Origin: Candidatus Marinacidobacterium sp.
GTDB lineage: Bacteria > Acidobacteriota > Vicinamibacteria > Marinacidobacterales > Marinacidobacteraceae
DNA: 64,000 nt
Assembly: GCA_965220965.1 (NCBI GenBank)
Contig: OZ244852.1
Location: forward strand, 1,376,001 to 1,440,000
Direction: 5' to 3'
The notes under the pieces are model-generated. The model was not told the origin of the DNA, made no database searches, and saw only the letters and a list, made by a program, of their open reading frames with translations. The position numbers were made by a program, and so were the translations under genes. Below are positions 17,356-62,204 of the stretch, piece by piece (within the stretch, counting starts at the first letter, position 1; each line of letters opens with the position of its first letter).

Positions 17356-18351
17356 ATGGCCCGGGGACGAATCGCTCTGGCGCTCGGCCTGCTTGCGGGG
17401 CCGGGATGCGCCCCGGCGCCGGAGGCGCCCAACTGGCGCGACGAGGCGGCCGGGATCGCGGGAGCGCTCGCCGCGGTTCCGACGACGGACTTCACCGACC
17501 TCGGGGTGAGCGTCTGGATCGGACCCGCTGACCTGAGCCTCACCGGCGGCGCGCCGCTCCACGCCGAGGCCGCCGATGTTCCCCGCCCCGCCGCCAGCTC
17601 GATCAAGACGTCGTACCTCGTCGAACTGTTCGCGGACCGCGAGGGGAACCTCCTCGATCCGCTGCCGGACGCCGCCTCGGTCGTCGGCGACCCGGACCAT
17701 CCCGCCGTTACTCACTTCGACGCGGAAACGCAGGCCGAAATCCGGGAGGCGCTGACCGCGGCGCCCACCGAGACGGTGGGCTTCCACATGATCCGGGGGA
17801 CCGGCGTCTCGAACGCGGTCTACAACGCCGCCGCCAACCTGACGACGGCGTTCCTCGGCGGCCCGGCGGAGCTCACCCGCCGGATCCACGCCCGTCACCC
17901 GGACTTCGCCGGGATCCACTCCCGCCGCTACATGCTGGCCGCGCGCGACGTCACCGGCGACAACACCGCGACCGCCGCCTCGCTGGCGGCGGTTCTCGCC
18001 GGGATCGCCCGCGGGGACACGCCCGGGGTCTCGGCGGGGGTCCACGACGAGATCCGCAAGATCCTCTTTCTCGAGGACACGCCGGACGGTCTCCACTTCT
18101 TCAAGGGAGGCTCGCTGAACTCGGATCCCCTGACCCGGGTGCTCTCCGGGTACTACCAGGAGACCGCCTTCAGCGCGCCCGGCGCCGCGCTGACTTACGT
18201 CTTCATGGTCGAGCTACCCGGTCCCGCGGGCATTGCCCCCGGAACGCTCGACCGCGGTGAAGCCGGCGAGCGGCTCCAGGAGCTCGTCTCCGCGATGCGC
18301 GACGCCGCGCTCCCACCCGCCCGCCGCGCGCTGGCGGCCGCGATCCCATGA
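17356..18351 (+). CDS. Serine hydrolase of beta-lactamase/PBP fold, putative lipoprotein
   Basis: AASSIK (SxxK), FFKGGS (KTG-like), N-terminal Cys lipobox-like segment; TACACT 7 nt before the ATG. Confidence 0.65.
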   Translation: MARGRIALALGLLAGPGCAPAPEAPNWRDEAAGIAGALAAVPTTDFTDLGVSVWIGPADLSLTGGAPLHAEAADVPRPAASSIKTSYLVELFADREGNLLDPLPDAASVVGDPDHPAVTHFDAETQAEIREALTAAPTETVGFHMIRGTGVSNAVYNAAANLTTAFLGGPAELTRRIHARHPDFAGIHSRRYMLAARDVTGDNTATAASLAAVLAGIARGDTPGVSAGVHDEIRKILFLEDTPDGLHFFKGGSLNSDPLTRVLSGYYQETAFSAPGAALTYVFMVELPGPAGIAPGTLDRGEAGERLQELVSAMRDAALPPARRALAAAIP

Positions 18352-19592
18352 CCAGGCCGCTCCTCGTCGCCGCGGCGCTCGCGCTGGCGGCGCCGGTCGT
18401 CGCCGAGGACTGGCCGCAGTGGCGAGGTCCGAACCGGGACGGGATCTCGCTCGAGACCGGCCTCCTCCAGCAGTGGCCCGACGGCGGCCCCGAACTCGCC
18501 TTCCGGGCCGAAGGACTCGGCGCCGGCTACTCCACGATCTCGGTGGCTGACGGGCGCGTCTTCACCCTCGGCATGGTCTCCGGCCGCGAGTGGGTCTTCG
18601 CGCTCGATGCGCGGACCGGCGCCACGCTCTGGTCCACGCCGCACGGCGCCGGTCGCCGCGACGGGCGCGGCGATGGCCCGAGATCGGCGCCGACCGTCGT
18701 GGGGGACCGGGTCTTCGTGCTGGGCGCCCGCGGCCGGCTCTCGGCGCTGGAGGCGGCCAGCGGGCAGACGGTCTGGGGCGTGGACCTGATCGGGGACATC
18801 GGCGGACGGAACATCAGTTGGGGAATCAGCGAGTCGCCCCTCGTCCTCGACGGCCGGGTGCTCGTATCCCCGGGCGGCCGCCGCGCCGGGTTCGCGGCCC
18901 TCGACGCCGAGACCGGGGAGGTGCTCTGGGCCACCGGCGGCGACGAGGCGGGCTACGCCTCGCCGATCCCGGTTCCCCTCGCGGGCGCGCCCCATGTCGT
19001 GTTCTTCAGCGGCGACCGGGCCGCCGGGGTCCGCGCCAGGGACGGCGAGGTGCTGTGGAGCTTCGAGGGGGCCTCGAACCGCACCGCGAACATCGCCACG
19101 CCGGTGCTCGCGCCGGCGCCTCCCGGCGCCGCCCGCGTCTTTCTGAGCTCCGACTACGGAACCGGCGGCGCGCTCGTCGAGCTCCGCGCCGGAGACGACG
19201 GGACCGTCTCCGCCACCGAGCTCTGGTTCACCCGGAACCTCCGCGCCCATCACGCCACCCCGATCCTCCACGACGGCGTGCTCTACGGGTTCTCCGGCTC
19301 GATCTTCAGCGCCCTCGACATCGAGACCGGCGGCCTGTTCTGGCGGGACCGGAGCGTCCGCAAGGGCTCGCTCACGTTCGCCGACGGCCGGATCTACGTG
19401 TTCACCGAACGCGGGGACGCGGTGCTGCTCGCCCCGTCGCGGGAGGGATATGACGAGCGCGGCCGCTTCGCCCTTCCCTCGGAGGATCGCTCCCGCCGGG
19501 ACACGTGGTCCCATCCGGTGGTGGCGAACGGGCTCCTCTACCTGCGCGACCAGGAACTCCTGCTTGCGTATGACGTAGCGCAGACGCCGTGA
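18348..19592 (+). CDS. PQQ-like beta-propeller repeat protein (BamB-like)
   Basis: Signal peptide, then EDWPQWRGPNRDG; repeated ALDAxTGxxLW; WSHPVVANGLLYLRD. Confidence 0.88.
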   Translation: MTRPLLVAAALALAAPVVAEDWPQWRGPNRDGISLETGLLQQWPDGGPELAFRAEGLGAGYSTISVADGRVFTLGMVSGREWVFALDARTGATLWSTPHGAGRRDGRGDGPRSAPTVVGDRVFVLGARGRLSALEAASGQTVWGVDLIGDIGGRNISWGISESPLVLDGRVLVSPGGRRAGFAALDAETGEVLWATGGDEAGYASPIPVPLAGAPHVVFFSGDRAAGVRARDGEVLWSFEGASNRTANIATPVLAPAPPGAARVFLSSDYGTGGALVELRAGDDGTVSATELWFTRNLRAHHATPILHDGVLYGFSGSIFSALDIETGGLFWRDRSVRKGSLTFADGRIYVFTERGDAVLLAPSREGYDERGRFALPSEDRSRRDTWSHPVVANGLLYLRDQELLLAYDVAQTP

Positions 19593-19966
19593 AGTCTCCG
19601 CTCCGCTTCGCGACCGCCCTCTTTGTCGTCGCGGCGTTCTTCGCCGCCCAGGGCTTCGCCACCCCCCACATGCTGGGGATGGACTGCGATGCGGATTGCC
19701 CGGACTGCGCCGTCGAATGCATCGGCTGCCAGGTCGCCTCCGCGGAGCCTCCGCAGCCGCTCGATACCGCCGGGGATCAGACCGGACCAAAAGAGGTCGC
19801 CCAGGTCGGCGCGGCATTCACCGCGTCCGCCCCACGGCGCCCGGGCGCCCCACCCCGCGGCCACCCGCCTGAGAAGGACATCCCCGGACAAGAGCCGCGA
19901 CCCGCGGTCCGTATCCGGGGCTCATCCGCCAGGGCCGACCGGCGCTCCCGAACGCTGTACTCCTGA
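19589..19966 (+). CDS. Cys-rich secreted leader peptide, copy 1 (frameshifted at the RGPP motif)
   Basis: Signal peptide and HMLGMDCDADCPDCAVECIGC identical to copy 2. One C is missing at ~19861, which changes RGPPA* to RGHPPEKD... with read-through into the UTR. Confidence 0.7.
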   Translation: MKSPLRFATALFVVAAFFAAQGFATPHMLGMDCDADCPDCAVECIGCQVASAEPPQPLDTAGDQTGPKEVAQVGAAFTASAPRRPGAPPRGHPPEKDIPGQEPRPAVRIRGSSARADRRSRTLYS

Positions 19967-20031
19967 ACGAGGCGCGGGAGTCCGTGTGGCCCGTTCCGCC
20001 GCGCGAAGCGCGGCTACGGAGTTCCTTCCCG
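19870..20031 (+). promoter_or_regulatory. Structured 5' leader RNA of outer-membrane protein, copy 1
   Basis: Three stems conserved with copy 2; the last stem (TCCG CCGCGC GAA GCGCGG CTA CGGA) covers the GGAG RBS. Confidence 0.6.
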
Positions 20032-21381
20032 ATGGCCACCAACCTCTTCCTCCCCGGGCGCAGGACCCGCTCTCTCGTTCCAGGAGCGACCTCCGCTCTC
20101 CTGCTCTGTCTCGGCGCCCCGGTCTTCGCCGGCCCCGGCGCTTCACACCCGGACGAAGTTCCCCCCGGGTGTTCCCTGCTGGACCCCCGTCAGGCCCGGG
20201 CGGTCCCCCTCGCCGACTGCGGACAGGGATCCCTCCCCTCCCCGGCCCAGGCGGTGGCGCATGCGCAGGCGGACCGCGATCCCGACATCGGCGACGTCAC
20301 CGAGGCGCTTCGGGGCGGCGGAGCCCAGCACGCTCAACACTCTCAGCACGGGCCCGACGCCCACCAGCCGATGGCCTTCACCGCCGACGGGCATGCCCCG
20401 ATCGGCGTGATGGGGGTTATGGGCGCCCACGTGCACGGCGCGGGTGAACTCATGCTCTCGTACCGGTTTCAGCCGATGGCGATGAGCGGTCTGCGGGACG
20501 GCTCGGCCGACCTCGCCGACGCCGAAGCGCTCGCGGTGGACAACCCCTTCTTCGGCAACCCCGGCCAGCCCCCCAAGATGCGCATCCTTCCGCGCGAGAT
20601 GCCGATGAACATGCACATGGTCGGCGCGATGCTCGGGGTCCACGAACGGGTCACCCTGATGGGCATGGGCATGTACATGTCCCGCGACATGACGCTCGAG
20701 ACCCACAACATGATGGGCGCCCCGATCGGGACCTTCGAGCCGGGAAGCTCCGGCCTGGGGGACAGCAGCCTCGGCGCGTTGATCAGCCTGGCGCAGGGCG
20801 CCGTCAACGTCCAGATGATGGCCGGCGTCGGGATCCCCACCGGGTCGCTCGATACCAGCGGCGAGGTGCTGCTCCCGACCGGGATGCAGCGCGAACTCCG
20901 GCTGCCCTACGCGATGCAGCTCGGATCCGGCACGTTCGACGCGCAGCCCGGCATCGTCGTCCAGACGAAGCGGGGCAACGTCAGCGTGGGAGGGCAGCTC
21001 CGGGGCAGGATTCGTTTCGGCGAGAACTCCGATGGCTACCGCCTCGGAAACGAGGTCCTGGCCACCGCCTGGGCGATGGTCCAGCCGGTCCCGGCCGCCG
21101 CGCTCACCGCGCGCGTCCAGTTCGACCAGATGGGCGCCATCGAGGGTCAGGACGGGATGATCGCCGGTCCGGTCCCGACGGCCGACCCGTCGAACTACGG
21201 CGGAACCCGGGTCACCGGTCTCATCGGCCTGAACCTCGCCGGCCAGAGCGGCGCGATCCGGGAGCACCGGCTGGCGTTCGAGCTCGGCATCCCGCTGTAT
21301 CAGGACCTGAACGGCCCGCAGATGCCGCGAAGCTGGGAGTTCATGGTGGGCTGGCAGCGCGGCTGGTCGCTGACCAACTGA
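20032..21381 (+). CDS. His/Met-rich outer-membrane beta-barrel transporter, copy 1 (putative metal/Cu uptake)
   Basis: Signal peptide; HAQHSQH region; DGHAPIGVMG..HVH; MLSYRFQPMAM; MPMNMHM; YAMQLGSGTFD; LYQDLNGPQM; aromatic terminal beta-strand. Confidence 0.75.
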   Translation: MATNLFLPGRRTRSLVPGATSALLLCLGAPVFAGPGASHPDEVPPGCSLLDPRQARAVPLADCGQGSLPSPAQAVAHAQADRDPDIGDVTEALRGGGAQHAQHSQHGPDAHQPMAFTADGHAPIGVMGVMGAHVHGAGELMLSYRFQPMAMSGLRDGSADLADAEALAVDNPFFGNPGQPPKMRILPREMPMNMHMVGAMLGVHERVTLMGMGMYMSRDMTLETHNMMGAPIGTFEPGSSGLGDSSLGALISLAQGAVNVQMMAGVGIPTGSLDTSGEVLLPTGMQRELRLPYAMQLGSGTFDAQPGIVVQTKRGNVSVGGQLRGRIRFGENSDGYRLGNEVLATAWAMVQPVPAAALTARVQFDQMGAIEGQDGMIAGPVPTADPSNYGGTRVTGLIGLNLAGQSGAIREHRLAFELGIPLYQDLNGPQMPRSWEFMVGWQRGWSLTN

Positions 21382-21416
21382 CGCTCCTCCCCAGAGGAAC
21401 GCCGACCGGTTTGGCC

Positions 21417-21458
21417 GGGCCGTCTGATCCCACCCGGTGGGGGCGGACGGTCTCCTCC
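21417..21458 (+). terminator. Hairpin after transporter copy 1
   Basis: GGCCGTCTGATCCCAC-CCG-GTGGGGGCGGACGGTC imperfect stem. Confidence 0.4.
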
Positions 21459-21508
21459 GCCCCCGCAACCCGGCGCTCGCGAATCGCGTAGGATGTAGCG
21501 CAGCCTCC

Positions 21509-21793
21509 GTGAAGTCCCCGCTCCGCCTAGCGACCGCTCTCCTGGTCGTCGCGGCGTTCTTCGCCGTCCAGGGCTTCGCCACCCCCCACATGCTGGGGAT
21601 GGACTGCGATGCGGATTGCCCCGACTGCGCCGTCGAGTGCATCGGATGCCAGGTCGCCTCCGCGGAGCCTCCGCAGTCGCCCGAGGCGTCCCGGGTAACG
21701 GGAGTCAGGCATCGGGCGCCGAAGATCGTCACGGTCGTCGCTGCGCCGGCGCCGCGCGATCCGGGCGCCCCGCCTCGCGGCCCACCCGCCTGA
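21509..21793 (+). CDS. Cys-rich secreted leader peptide, copy 2, with C-terminal RGPP arrest-like motif (DUF2946/CutF/CruR-like architecture)
   Basis: GTG start homologous to 19589; signal peptide; C-x3-C-x2-C-x3-C-x2-C; Pro-rich linker ending APPRGPPA*. Confidence 0.8.
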   Translation: MKSPLRLATALLVVAAFFAVQGFATPHMLGMDCDADCPDCAVECIGCQVASAEPPQSPEASRVTGVRHRAPKIVTVVAAPAPRDPGAPPRGPPA

Positions 21794-21954
21794 GAAGGAC
21801 ATCCCCGGACAGGAGCCGCGACCCGCGGTCCCTATCCGGGGCTCATCCGCCAGGGCCGACCGGCACTTCCCGAACGCTGTACTCCTGAACGAGGCGCGGG
21901 AAGTTCCTGTGGCCCGTTCCGCCGCGCGATGCGCGGCTACGGAGTTCCTTCCCG
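21794..21954 (+). promoter_or_regulatory. Structured 5' leader RNA of outer-membrane protein, copy 2
   Basis: Stems CCCCGGA/TCCGGGG, ACTTCCCG/CGGGAAGT and CCGCGC/GCGCGG; the RBS lies in the last stem. Confidence 0.65.
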
Positions 21955-23127
21955 ATGGCTTTCCATCTCCTTTCCCGGCGACGCGGGACCCGCGTCGTCC
22001 TTCCCGGAGCGGCCTCCGCTCTCCTCCTCGCCCTCGGCGTCCCGGCCTTCGCCGACCCGGACGCGCCCTCTCCCGACGAGGCCGAAGTCTCGTCGACCAC
22101 CGGCGCCGACGACGCCGATCAGCTCGCTCCCTACAACGCCGACGGCCACGCCCCGATCGGCGTCATGGCCGAGCACATGCACAACGCCGGCGAGTTCATG
22201 CTCTCGTACCGCTTCCAGCCGATGGCGATGAGCGGTCTGCAGGACGGCTCGGCCGAGCTCGCCGACGCCGAAGCGCTCGCAGTGGACAACCCCTTCTTCG
22301 GCAACCCCGGCCAGCCCCCCAAGATGCGCATCCTCCCGCGCGAGATGCCGATGAACATGCACATGTTCGGCGCGATGCTCGGGATCCACGACCGGGTCAC
22401 GCTCATGGGCATGGGCATGTTCATGTCCCGCGACATGACGCTCGAGACCCACAACATGATGGGCGCCCCGATCGGGACGTTCGAGCCCGGAAGCTCCGGG
22501 ATCGGGGACAGCAGCCTCAGCGCGATGATCGGCCTCTCCTCCGGCGAAGTCCGCGCCCACCTGATCGCGGGCGTCGGGATCCCCACCGGGTCGCTCGACA
22601 CGACCGGCGAGGTGCTGCTGCCGACCGGCATGCAGCGCGAACTCCGGCTGCCCTACGCGATGCAGCTCGGATCCGGCACGTTCGACGCCCAGCCCGGCAT
22701 CGTCGTCCAGACGAAGCGGGGCAACGTCAGCGTGGGAGGGCAGCTCCGGGGCAAGATCCGCTTCGGCGAGAACTCGGAGGGCTACCGCCTCGGCAACGAG
22801 GTCCTCGCCACCGCCTGGGCGATGGTCCAGCCGGTCCCGGCCGCAGCGCTCACCGCGCGTGTCCAGTTCGACCAGATGGGCGCCATCGAGGGACAGGACG
22901 GGATGATCGCCGGTCCGGTCCCCACCGCCGACCCGTCGAACTACGGCGGGACGCGGGTCACCGGGCTCATCGGCCTGAACCTCGCCGGCCAGAGCGGCGC
23001 GATCCGCGAGCACCGGCTGGCGTTCGAGCTCGGCATCCCGCTCTACCAGGACCTGAACGGCCCGCAGATGCCGCGAAGCTGGCAGTTCATCGCCGGCTGG
23101 CAGCGCGCCTGGTCGTTCGCCAACTGA
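21955..23127 (+). CDS. His/Met-rich outer-membrane beta-barrel transporter, copy 2
   Basis: Paralog of 20032-21381 with a shorter N-terminus; DGHAPIGVMAEHMH. Confidence 0.78.
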   Translation: MAFHLLSRRRGTRVVLPGAASALLLALGVPAFADPDAPSPDEAEVSSTTGADDADQLAPYNADGHAPIGVMAEHMHNAGEFMLSYRFQPMAMSGLQDGSAELADAEALAVDNPFFGNPGQPPKMRILPREMPMNMHMFGAMLGIHDRVTLMGMGMFMSRDMTLETHNMMGAPIGTFEPGSSGIGDSSLSAMIGLSSGEVRAHLIAGVGIPTGSLDTTGEVLLPTGMQRELRLPYAMQLGSGTFDAQPGIVVQTKRGNVSVGGQLRGKIRFGENSEGYRLGNEVLATAWAMVQPVPAAALTARVQFDQMGAIEGQDGMIAGPVPTADPSNYGGTRVTGLIGLNLAGQSGAIREHRLAFELGIPLYQDLNGPQMPRSWQFIAGWQRAWSFAN

Positions 23128-23166
23128 CGCTCCCGCGGAGGGCGCGCCGGCTCGACCGGCGCGCCC

Positions 23167-23937
23167 TCACGGCGCCTGGGAAGAAAGGCGCTCGGGGGAT
23201 TCCCTGCGGGCGTCCAGTTCCCGCTCGAGCGCCCGGGACGCGGTGCGTCCCACCCACCGGACCAGGAAGAACATCGCGACGGCGCTGACCAGCGTCAGGA
23301 CCGCGGCCATCGAGGCCTGGCCGGTGACCAGCGACGCGCTGGCGGAGCCGGCGGCGCCGACCTGGGCGAAGAACGACGCGCCGAGCGGGATCGCGAAGAG
23401 CGACCCGACGGCGTAGGTGCGGAAGCTCACCGGCGTGACCGCCCAGCCGTAGTTCTGGGCGGCGAACGGGATCAGCGGCGGCAGTCGGGTCAGGAGGACG
23501 ACGCGGACTCCGCCGGCGCCCAGCACCCGGAACACCGCCGCGGCCACCGGGAAGCGGGCGAGGACCCGCTCGACGAACCGCCGGAGGACGAGGCGCGCCA
23601 GCCAGAAGGCGGTCAGCGACCCCAGCCAGGTCCCGATCGAGGCGATCACGCTGCCCCAGACCGGCCCGAACAGCAGGCCGGCGGCGACGCAGAAGACCGT
23701 GTTCGGGACCGCGACGCCCACGAGGAGCGCGTGGACGACGATGAGCGGCGCCGGCGTCGTCGGGATCCACGCGGGGAGCTCGACCGGTTCGCCGACGCTG
23801 AGCCAGGCGATCAGCCCGGCGGTGCTCACGAGGAACAGGCCCCACAGCAGCGGCTGCCAGCCCCGGCGGAGGAGCTTCTTCCACCAGGGCCCGCCGCCCG
23901 CGGCGCGCGCCGGGCCGGCCGGGGGTCGGGTCGCCAA
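23167..23937 (-). CDS. TVP38/TMEM64 (VTT/DedA superfamily) membrane protein
   Basis: AGLLFGPVWG; LLTRLPPLIPFAAQNYGW motif. TTG start just after the mmsA stop is inferred. Confidence 0.8.
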   Translation of the reverse strand: MATRPPAGPARAAGGGPWWKKLLRRGWQPLLWGLFLVSTAGLIAWLSVGEPVELPAWIPTTPAPLIVVHALLVGVAVPNTVFCVAAGLLFGPVWGSVIASIGTWLGSLTAFWLARLVLRRFVERVLARFPVAAAVFRVLGAGGVRVVLLTRLPPLIPFAAQNYGWAVTPVSFRTYAVGSLFAIPLGASFFAQVGAAGSASASLVTGQASMAAVLTLVSAVAMFFLVRWVGRTASRALERELDARRESPERLSSQAP

Positions 23938-60383: not shown

Positions 60384-62204
60384 GTGAACCTCCACAGCAC
60401 AGGATCCGCGACGCTCTGCCGGATCCGGCTCGCCTCCTCATTCGGCGTCCTGATGGCGGCCGCCCTCTCCCTCTCCTGCGAAGGCTCGGGGGGGACGGGC
60501 CAGCTCGTCGCCACGCCGACCTCTCCGGCGCCATCCACCCTCGAGATCGTGGCCGAGCGCACGGAGTACCTCGTCGGGATGGTGGACCGGCTGCCCGACG
60601 CGGAAGGCGCTACATGGACCTCTTCGAACCCGGACATCGTGGAAGTCCTGCCGGGCGAGCGCTTCCTCGCGAGAGGCGCGGGCGCGGCGGATCTGATCGC
60701 CTCCCGGGAAGGTCAGGAAGCGCGCGTCACGCTCTCGGTCACGTCGCCCTATGACCGAACCGGCGAACCGAGGTTGACCGGCCTGGAAGTCCTGGGCCTG
60801 CCCGTCCTCCACGACGAAATCGTCGCCTTGGAGGACGCCGTGAAGGTCTACGGCATCTACAACCATCAGACCCTTCAGGAGGTCCCCGCCGCACTGTCGT
60901 CCGCGGATCCGGATGTCCTGACGGTGGACGACGATGGAACGATCCACGTCATGGGGGTTGGCGCAACCACGGTCACGGCGTCGTACGAAGGACACGCGAC
61001 CTCAAGACGGTTCGGCGTCACAACCCGGGAGAAGTCGCGGGCGGCGCTTGTCGACAATCTCGGGGAGGGCTTCGACTGCGGCTTGGTTGCACACTTGGCT
61101 CCGTCATGGGCGGCTCGCCACATGATGCAGGGAATGACCGTGCCCTTTGTCCTTACGGAAATGTGCGTGGACGGGACGATCCGGAGGACTCGCGACGTCC
61201 GCCTTGCGTCCACGAATCCCGAGGTCATCGAAGTCGGTCCGGGCGGCTTCCTCACCGCCAAACACCCCGGCCAGGCCACCGTTGAACCACTCCAGGCGGG
61301 CATCGGGATCCTCGACCAACCGACCGGCCAGTCCGGCTTCGGAGTCTTCACGGTCCTCCCCGAGTTCGAGTTCACGCCCGAGGCGCTCAGCCAGCGGTCC
61401 TACCAGGACCGCCCCGACGACTACGAGGGTCCGCAGATCCATGTCGTCTATGCCGTGCCCGAAGACGTGGCGGACCGCGGGCTGGATCTCTCCGGCCAAC
61501 TCGAGGCCTCGTTCGCGTCGGTCCAGAACTGGATCTGGCAGGCGATCGGCTACCAGCTCAACCTGGACACCTACGGCGGGCGGCCGGACATCACCTTCGT
61601 CCGCATGCTGACTCCCCATGGAAGTGTTGAGGATTCCTTCCAGGACCTGCTCGACGGGCTGGACCGGGCGATGGGGCTCCAGAGGGACAAGAAGTACCTC
61701 GTCTTTGCTCCCGTGTGGTCCTATCTTCTCGGCAAGGCGAGCGTGCAGGAAGGCGTGGGCGCGGTCTATCTGGACAGACACATGAGTATGGCCTGGGGCG
61801 CCCACCTGGACAATTTCTTCCCAGTCGAATCGGAGTTCGACATCACTGGCGGTGAAAGGACGGCGCTCCACGAACTCCTCCACACGTTCGGCGCCGTCGC
61901 CGGGTGCGCACCCAACTTCGACGGCTCCTCCCACGTAGACGACGCGCCGGACGACGTGATGTGGGCAGGTTCGGGTTTCCGCATCGACGTCGGTCGGGAT
62001 GACTACTTCGGCCATGGGCGGGACGACTGCCTCGACACCGCCGACAGCCCTTTCTGGCGTCAGGTCGCCACCCTCACGACCCACGCCTCGGCCACACGTC
62101 GCATCAACAGCCCGGAAGACAAAAGGGCCATAGCCAATATGGAGGCGCAAATCCTCTCCCTGTTCGGGCCCGACCCTTATCTGCGCTGCGCTCTCCCCCA
62201 CTGA
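60384..62204 (+). CDS. Ig-like repeat + zincin lipoprotein, paralog 4
   Basis: LSLSC; HELLHTFGA; SHV; DVM; ends RCALPH. Confidence 0.82.
   Translation: MNLHSTGSATLCRIRLASSFGVLMAAALSLSCEGSGGTGQLVATPTSPAPSTLEIVAERTEYLVGMVDRLPDAEGATWTSSNPDIVEVLPGERFLARGAGAADLIASREGQEARVTLSVTSPYDRTGEPRLTGLEVLGLPVLHDEIVALEDAVKVYGIYNHQTLQEVPAALSSADPDVLTVDDDGTIHVMGVGATTVTASYEGHATSRRFGVTTREKSRAALVDNLGEGFDCGLVAHLAPSWAARHMMQGMTVPFVLTEMCVDGTIRRTRDVRLASTNPEVIEVGPGGFLTAKHPGQATVEPLQAGIGILDQPTGQSGFGVFTVLPEFEFTPEALSQRSYQDRPDDYEGPQIHVVYAVPEDVADRGLDLSGQLEASFASVQNWIWQAIGYQLNLDTYGGRPDITFVRMLTPHGSVEDSFQDLLDGLDRAMGLQRDKKYLVFAPVWSYLLGKASVQEGVGAVYLDRHMSMAWGAHLDNFFPVESEFDITGGERTALHELLHTFGAVAGCAPNFDGSSHVDDAPDDVMWAGSGFRIDVGRDDYFGHGRDDCLDTADSPFWRQVATLTTHASATRRINSPEDKRAIANMEAQILSLFGPDPYLRCALPH

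Follow-up and report, generated by a model that had tools for sequence, protein, structure and literature searches.

Tandem cysteine-rich RGPP leaders ahead of plugged outer-membrane barrels in Candidatus Marinacidobacterium: a candidate soft-metal arrest system

What does a short, cysteine-rich reading frame that ends in RGPP do in front of an outer-membrane barrel gene, and what might that barrel carry? The question arises from a 64,000-nucleotide stretch of Candidatus Marinacidobacterium sp. (assembly GCA_965220965.1, contig OZ244852.1, positions 1,376,001 to 1,440,000; the window hereafter), for which an earlier note had described, twice in tandem, a small leader with HMxxM, a five-Cys pattern, a Pro-rich linker and, in copy 2, RGPPA before the stop, followed by a barrel rich in His and Met. 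All of these parts are present, and barrel 2 carries 26 Met and 9 His. We judge it likely, with a probability of roughly 0.72, that the leader is a metal-sensing arrest peptide resembling CruR and CutF that controls the barrel, and that the barrel is a TonB-independent channel for a soft metal, most likely copper. The idea of the note that the Cys-rich RGPP leader senses a soft metal is upheld as the best explanation by the invariant spacing of the leader, the enrichment of R[AG]PP frames upstream of barrels, DUF2946 matches on distant leaders and copper neighbours. The locus is laid out as follows.

18348..19592, + strand: PQQ/BamB-like beta-propeller gene (PF13360, E 3.5e-31)
19589..19872, + strand: leader 1, Cys-rich RGPP leader of 94 aa once corrected from the contigs of two runs and the recorded protein P0121
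19873..20031, + strand: spacer 1, near-identical to spacer 2
20032..21381, + strand: barrel 1, 449 aa, ATG at 20032 (weak PF13557 match, E 0.023)
21382..21508, + strand: inter-unit segment, closing with a copy of the final ~25 nt of the propeller gene
21509..21793, + strand: leader 2, 94 aa (HMLGM, five Cys, RGPPA before the stop)
21794..21954, + strand: spacer 2, 161 nt, three hairpins (fold z -3.5)
21955..23127, + strand: barrel 2, 390 aa, 26 Met, 9 His and no Cys (12-stranded COG4313/FapF fold)

Leader architecture and spacing

Leader 2 has a basic N-terminus, a hydrophobic helix (residues 3-23), H27, M28 and M31, and, after HMLGM, the pattern C33-x3-C37-x2-C40-x3-C44-x2-C47; a Pro/Ala-rich, disordered linker then leads to R90-G91-P92-P93 (codons 21776-21787), A94 and the stop. 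Its predicted model consists of helix and disorder (pLDDT 59). Among 30,574 frames of the genome of at least 50 aa, counted from stop to stop, 54 end in R[AG]PP and seven carry Cx3Cx2Cx3C, leader 2 being the only one with both. We compared 22 distinct homologous cores; since these are related to one another and came from a profile search, their count overstates independence. In every core, four invariant Cys precede the Arg of RGPP by 57, 53, 50 and 46 residues. The CxxC formed by C37 and C40 is invariant within the larger Cx3Cx2Cx3C (22/22), as is RGPP, which stands one residue before the stop in 21 of the 22. Exactly 45 residues intervene between C44 and R90 in all cores (49 when counted from the CxxC itself), and the linkers share a median pairwise identity of 19%. 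Judged from these alignments, the leader appears to behave as a molecular ruler, fixed in length and free in sequence, and the subfamily offers a clean natural test of that model. The five Cys that had been singled out as a difference from known leaders are specific to this genome; the invariant set is four, and 20 of the 22 cores end in CCC and carry six. Neither the two window leaders nor the 22 homologs match a Pfam family, and an Fe-S protein was ruled out, the sole match being a weak one of 20 residues to HydD (12 bits against a cut-off of 500).

The same distance recurs in published leaders (statements on published systems, here and below, relate to the accessible portions of the sources). 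In CruR (Bp2923, DUF2946/PF11162), which heads cruR-bfrG(crtA)-bp2921 (PMC9426467; PMC12914433), 45 residues lie between C93 and R139, and five additional residues impair regulation (PMC9426467); the cruR-bfrG spacer measures 162 bp and control is Rho-dependent. For CutF, it was argued that such a stretch of 45 residues brings the motif into SecY's periplasmic vestibule (PMC9973294). Stalling switches the downstream gene on in both systems, which differ in the effect of copper on the stall. The window locus shares with CruR a small, putatively exported Cys leader, a terminal RxPP, the 45-residue Cys-Arg gap, a spacer of ~160 nt, a putative outer-membrane transporter downstream and a host that has Rho. 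Unlike CruR, the leader is without a DUF2946 match, carries Cx3Cx2Cx3C(CC) and HMxxM right behind the putative signal instead of one CxxC, measures 94 aa with RGPP rather than 145 aa with RAPP, and precedes a 12-stranded plugged barrel rather than a TonB-dependent transporter; CruR heads its operon, whereas in copy 1 the leader is tied to the gene before it. With CutF it shares a CxxxC 45 residues before the Pro-rich motif and predicted structure over the downstream start, and it falls within the length, terminal-PP and downstream-gene filters of the CutF-like survey (<150 aa, PP in the last 15 residues, same-strand neighbour within 1000 nt; here 94 aa, PP at 92-93 and 161 nt). Unlike CutF, its target is no multicopper oxidase and its spacer is longer (PMC9973294; bioRxiv 10.1101/2025.02.05.636593). 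With the RAPP/RGPP arrest peptides (ApdA, ApdP and the Streptomyces SLIV leaders; PMC12992588) the locus has in common a small, putatively secretory upstream open reading frame (uORF) that carries a C-terminal RGPP and precedes a metal-related gene. RGPP was the motif with the most robust arrest in a number of contexts, the stalled ribosome holding the two Pro codons in its P and A sites (PMC12992588); arrest at RAPP/RGPP motifs is context-dependent.

The regulatory class is already published: 5,334 CutF-like proteins with diverse targets were described from several phyla (PMC9973294), and RAPP/RGPP uORFs have been reported before metal genes. The non-TonB target and the probable non-proteobacterial host, presented in the earlier note as departures from known examples, both hold here, the close leader and barrel homologs being named Acidobacteriota (with consecutive accession numbers), yet they are less new than the note suggests, since both were published for CutF-like and RAPP/RGPP leaders. 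Four things are specific to the locus: a leader subfamily outside the DUF2946 profile whose site is built of His, Met and several Cys, a ruler of exact length, the coupling to the upstream gene and a probably recent duplication. The close barrel was found in this genome and in five of 26 other family genomes searched, as a single copy in those five, and the leader profile matches six of 55 genomes of the order, exactly the six with the close barrel. Conservation of the leader extends to five other genomes and to 19 clusters of proteins. When 1.84 billion representatives were searched with a profile, four own-family clusters and one N-terminal-only match came back, from which we conclude that the leader subfamily is narrow. 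The spacer between leader and barrel measures 134-185 nt in five loci and about 500 nt in a sixth, and barrel length ranges from 357 to 449 aa.

The barrel family and its upstream leaders

The barrel model (pLDDT 89.9, 120 sequences) has 12 main strands. Its fold matches are FapF (Z 24.4, rmsd 2.5, 250 residues aligned) and Pput2725 (Z 24.2, rmsd 2.6, 252 aligned), both at 11-12% identity, and the match to PcoB is far weaker (Z 12.2). Model and fold searches thus agree on a barrel of 12 strands that has a plug at its N-terminus, as in COG4313/PF13557; in Pput2725, also 12-stranded, the N-terminus fills the lumen (PMC4493636). Because model residue 68 aligns with residue 2 of Pput2725 (4rl8), the invariant H74 and H76, and probably the likewise invariant H65, are placed in the plug region. 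Eight Met (M82, M90, M92, M131, M135, M137, M141 and M153) are conserved in 120/120 sequences and alternate with lipid-type residues on strands 1-3, where they would face the lumen. Met/His sites of this kind favour Cu(I).

At the level of sequence, PF13557 gives 15.2 bits for barrel 1 (cut-off 22) and no match for barrel 2, and 82 of the 120 homologs match at E<=0.1 (best 8e-12). A TonB-dependent transporter was ruled out for barrel 2, which has 390 aa and 12 strands as against a 22-stranded barrel with plug domain. The PcoB/CopB family (7pge; PMC9210255) was rejected on the low fold score and on the lack of any such Pfam match in the 120 homologs; as a small TonB-independent barrel that passes Cu it is a functional analogue. 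The COG4313/PF13557 channels Pput2725, SphA and TcpY, and FapF, are linked to hydrophobic solutes or amyloid export (PMC4493636), unlike the window barrel with its predicted Met-lined wall, His plug and metal-type leader. No solved relatives of the barrel were found by sequence. The barrel family was not found as a copper channel in the literature covered by titles and abstract openings, with subscription papers outside that coverage, and PF13557, Phenol_MetA and Acidobacter do not occur in the supplements searched.

The barrel family is wide: of 8,000 candidates scored, at least 1,723 are homologs, and those that bear names come mostly from Alphaproteobacteria and are labelled "transporter" or "alpha-amylase". 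From 83 distant barrel loci, 15 with less than 450 nt upstream were dropped and 68 retained, barrel starts being picked mechanically. A same-strand upstream ORF ending in R[AG]PP lies just before the barrel in 34 of these loci (38 counting RSPP), compared with 0/68 for A[AG]PP, 4 of 646 windows on the opposite strand and 1 of 221 windows downstream. Cys is found 45-50 residues before the Arg in 39 of 41 R[AGS]PP leaders of distant barrels, and DUF2946 matches at E<0.05 were obtained for 20 of 50 distant leaders (50 of 51 were scanned), four of them above the cut-off. R[AG]PP enrichment, DUF2946 matches and Cys distance together indicate that the barrel family is often led by DUF2946-type leaders. 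By its sequence, the acidobacterial leader appears to occupy the same slot, with a different metal site. A survey of barrel homologs for such upstream frames had been proposed in the earlier note; its expectation holds for the 34 loci, set against the controls, and fails for the other half. In the source data of PMC12992588, RAPP leaders precede "transporter" genes 153 times versus 79 for AAPP (7.6-fold) and also "alpha-amylase" genes of barrel size, one listed leader matching that of locus L062 of our set. The accessible part of that paper does not identify either target as this barrel family, the window leader subfamily was not found in the portion of its source-data file 8 that was covered, and the survey sections of PMC9973294 do not name the barrel class. 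Similar leader/gene pairs are thus present, unrecognised, in published source data.

Neighbour scans at the distant loci covered 61 of the 70 ORFs downstream of the barrel and 22 of the 122 upstream of it. Directly 3' of the barrel we found PCuAC in four loci, CusF-SCO in one and an efflux outer-membrane protein (OEP) in one; 5' of it, PCuAC in one locus and a multicopper oxidase in two. The majority of neighbours are unrelated or unannotated. A link to nitrous-oxide reductase was seen in 0/28 genomes, a result made uninformative by an equally silent positive control. The genome under study encodes a COX1-family oxidase subunit, a copper P1B ATPase, three multicopper oxidases and Rho. Its CruR/CutF-type leader makes the barrel family a candidate, open to testing, for a small and energy-independent channel for copper, and most of the remaining value of the locus lies in this uncharacterised family, the regulatory principle itself being published. 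A more ambitious reading, to which we give somewhat less than even odds, is that the barrel is the prototype of a widespread, undescribed family of TonB-independent Cu(I) channels on the COG4313 fold; that unrelated leaders across several phyla share only a Cys ~46 residues before RxPP; that the acidobacterial version is a cooperative multi-metal Cu-thiolate sensor (HMxxM plus four to six Cys); and that stalling is coupled to translation over a long spacer via a sequence-variable stop-to-start helix.

Two variants on the leader arrangement were seen in more remote barrels. Loci L101 and L102, from the same phylum, have no separate leader; instead, the barrel ORF itself has an N-terminal segment rich in Cys, Met and His. 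Loci L010-L012, L014 and L103-L105 form a distinct barrel subgroup in the order and phylum, with an acidic/Leu start and no upstream leader. Their start resembles the N-termini of some TonB receptors.

Coupling of leader and barrel and the direction of control

In the mechanism that we propose, the 94-aa leader would be exported co-translationally and the ribosome would arrest at RGPP while Pro92 occupies the P site and Pro93 the A site, by analogy with tested RAPP/RGPP peptides. On geometric grounds, the fixed linker would put Cys44 close to the periplasmic mouth of SecY, at a distance of ~48 residues from the peptidyl-transferase centre, and the remaining Cys, His27 and Met28/Met31 farther out. 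Metal binding, most likely of Cu(I), would alter stall duration, and stalling would turn the barrel on, as in both tested systems. The stall may hold open a helix between the stop-proximal segment and the barrel start, which is predicted and modest here, may block Rho, which is present, or may do both; in our analysis, Rho-dependent control as in CruR and control by the start helix would stand on an equal footing. The barrel, a plugged 12-stranded TonB-independent channel, would pass a soft metal along its Met-lined wall and His plug, and the tandem pair would either double dosage or allow the two barrels, which differ at the N-terminus, to diverge under a common sensor.

The spacer folds support such a helix to differing degrees. 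The fold of spacer 2 beats all 200 shuffles (z -3.5), and its GAAGGA (21794-21799) can pair with TCCTTC (21946-21951), which lies between a Shine-Dalgarno (SD)-like GGAG (21941-21944) and the ATG; in spacer 1, 39 of 56 folding windows show the segment next to the stop paired with the region of the barrel start. A helix between ribosome footprint and barrel start, differing in sequence, is predicted in five of seven family loci and persists in 35-56 of 56 windows in those five, compared with 0/56 in L007; it is strongest in the relative at locus L005. Over 46 loci the footprint pairs with the start region by 7.0 nt on average versus 2.9 nt in shuffles, and over 43 loci cognate duplexes average -13.4 versus -9.7 kcal/mol for non-cognate ones, the cognate pair being better in 36 of 43 (4 of 50 loci were skipped in the pairing test for spacer length, and L009 was left out of the window-persistence and cognate-duplex tests). 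The earlier note had called the ~160-nt untranslated region conserved, which is right between the two copies (~96% identity) and does not extend to relatives: the spacer aligns with none of the spacers of 4/4 relatives tested, local scores lying within the shuffle range. A conserved RNA element was ruled out, as the spacer is without alignment across genera, and so was a riboswitch or other known RNA, for which Rfam gave only a chance snoRNA match upstream. Stretches with C>G, possible Rho sites, flank the leader stop and the barrel start.

As to direction, we lean modestly towards relief of the stall by copper, which would close down an uptake channel as in the case of CruR: delivery chaperones occur most often among the copper neighbours, and three other leaders of this type in the genome precede TonB-receptor-like genes. 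The opposite, CutF-like logic, by which copper would prolong the stall and induce the barrel for copper defence (by periplasmic efflux or buffering, an idea raised for PcoB), falls within the same reading as a sub-case, differing in direction alone, and we regard it as unlikely. It would fit the CxxxC of CutF type at the ruler position (C40-C44), the start-occluding helix predicted in the five family loci, and the multicopper oxidases 5' and the efflux OEP 3' of distant barrels, and it is opposed by the chaperones PCuAC/SCO at six loci, by a 161-nt spacer resembling that of cruR-bfrG and by those importer-like genes behind the three other leaders.

A somewhat weaker contender is that the arrest peptide senses another input, be it Zn, Hg, Ag, Cd, the periplasmic thiol-disulfide state or secretion stress, with the barrel as the route for that metal or for an organic solute. 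A cluster of four to six Cys would, on general chemistry, suit Zn, Cd, Hg or disulfides, and the published data accessible to us also show an excess of RAPP/RGPP uORFs ahead of DsbA/thioredoxin and sec genes; the Met-rich sites of leader (HMxxM) and barrel, by contrast, generally favour Cu(I)/Ag(I), and the metal-related neighbours recovered are copper genes. It is improbable that the peptide is a secreted metallothionein-like copper buffer or barrel chaperone with an incidental RGPP. One His, two Met and five to six Cys within 21 residues could bind several Cu(I), and a gene that follows its upstream neighbour within 28 nt in five of six genomes, rather than heading an operon, would be compatible with this; yet a soluble chaperone needs neither a linker of exact length and free sequence nor an invariant terminal RGPP, a motif avoided in proteomes according to the published work at hand, and the leader model is mostly disordered. 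That the leader is a spurious ORF in GC-rich DNA, or the pair an assembly duplication, is already refuted, since for all the GC content of 71%, the abundant shadow ORFs and one assembly error at the locus, the leader is conserved in the other genomes and protein clusters given above and copies and junction are backed by two sequencing runs.

Several observations weigh against a metal-sensing leader that controls a copper channel. The leader is not of DUF2946 type by the HMM check that had been suggested: PF11162 matches neither window leader at E<=1 and none of the 22 homologs, and a one-sequence profile comparison with one DUF2946-positive leader gave a probability of 0.2, that is, no match. 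Half of the 68 distant barrel loci are without a strict R[AG]PP leader, and so, judged by eye, are remoter barrels at four loci in the order and seven in the phylum. There is no copper gene among the neighbours scanned at the window locus, and PCuAC was not found in 28/28 family genomes searched. Characterised COG4313 channels have been linked to hydrophobic substrates (PMC4493636). For the helix, the controls leave GC content, Pro codons and kinship as confounders, and the predicted gain from opening the start is 1.5 and 0.3 kcal/mol here, compared with 3.4-4.3 in three relatives and none in two. At this locus the pairing varies with the folding window (it is seen in 42 of 56 and amounts to 0.9 nt in the one used for the 46-locus test), sits at the margin of the ribosome footprint and does not stand out from non-cognate pairs.

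Duplication, divergence and surroundings

In the window sequence the leader of copy 1 reads RGHP instead of RGPP, and its frame continues to 125 aa, ending at 19966. Two runs, each from a different study (X1, depth 5; X2, depth 93.6), gave contigs with an extra C after 19860, and P0121, a recorded 94-aa version from another contig, ends in RGPPA. We therefore conclude that the window contains a homopolymer assembly error and that both leaders are intact; the window sequence may itself stem from one of these runs. A degenerate copy 1 was ruled out, as the two runs restore RGPP. The unique junction (21307-21597) and both differing linkers are spanned by contigs in both runs, so that the tandem duplication is real, and sequence common to the two units is present at about double depth. 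The copy of the propeller-gene tail in the inter-unit segment marks the left edge of the duplication, which is probably recent and lineage-specific.

The barrels are 90% identical across a 330-codon core, ahead of which barrel 1 has the longer N-terminal extension, one that contains His. They differ at 33 of 178 fourfold sites, compared with the ~96% identity of the spacers, which may reflect constraint or gene conversion. The Cys core of the leaders is 100% identical between copies, and the 26-codon linker, equal in length, retains 12% amino acid identity. At the DNA level, the linkers (19757-19834 versus 21677-21754) differ at 51% of bases, their flanking segments are 90-97% identical and the barrel fourfold sites differ by 18.5%, a pattern that suggests patchy gene conversion or an older duplication. 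Two further features are found in barrel 1 and not in barrel 2: an N-terminal insertion of ~56 residues (20130-20400) with two Cys and a His/Gln-rich stretch, and a duplicated GVM triplet ahead of the conserved HxH.

The stop of the propeller gene overlaps the start of leader 1 (GTGA). This gene lies 5' of the leader in 6/6 genomes, overlapping it in three and within 28 nt in five, and is probably a conserved upstream neighbour rather than a functional part. A consensus scan found neither sigma-70 promoters nor intrinsic terminators at the locus; with the leader overlapping or abutting the propeller gene in five of six genomes, an internal promoter is possible. Before leader 2, the segment 21486-21508 contains TAGGAT where copy 1 has TATGAC, possibly a -10 element that would give copy 2 its own short-leader promoter, though the scan reported none there. 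A GC-rich hairpin without U tail (23135-23170) lies between barrel 2 and a convergent membrane-protein gene.

Elsewhere in the genome there are two Rho-like genes (G000:C1:341928-343160 and 60526-61635), one above and one below the family cut-off. Outside the window, the + strand of the same contig (G000:C1) also carries the three further small, putatively exported leaders, with stops near 116826, 444770 and 2304911. They have His/CxxCH or CxxC sites and a terminal RAPP/RGPP, each before a gene that is TonB-receptor-like by eye. The leader near 116826 is the sole DUF2946 match in the genome scan, at 18.3 bits, below the cut-off. In the leader near 2304911, the arrest codons pair with the SD region of the receptor gene over 14.8 nt, compared with 1.4 nt in shuffles.

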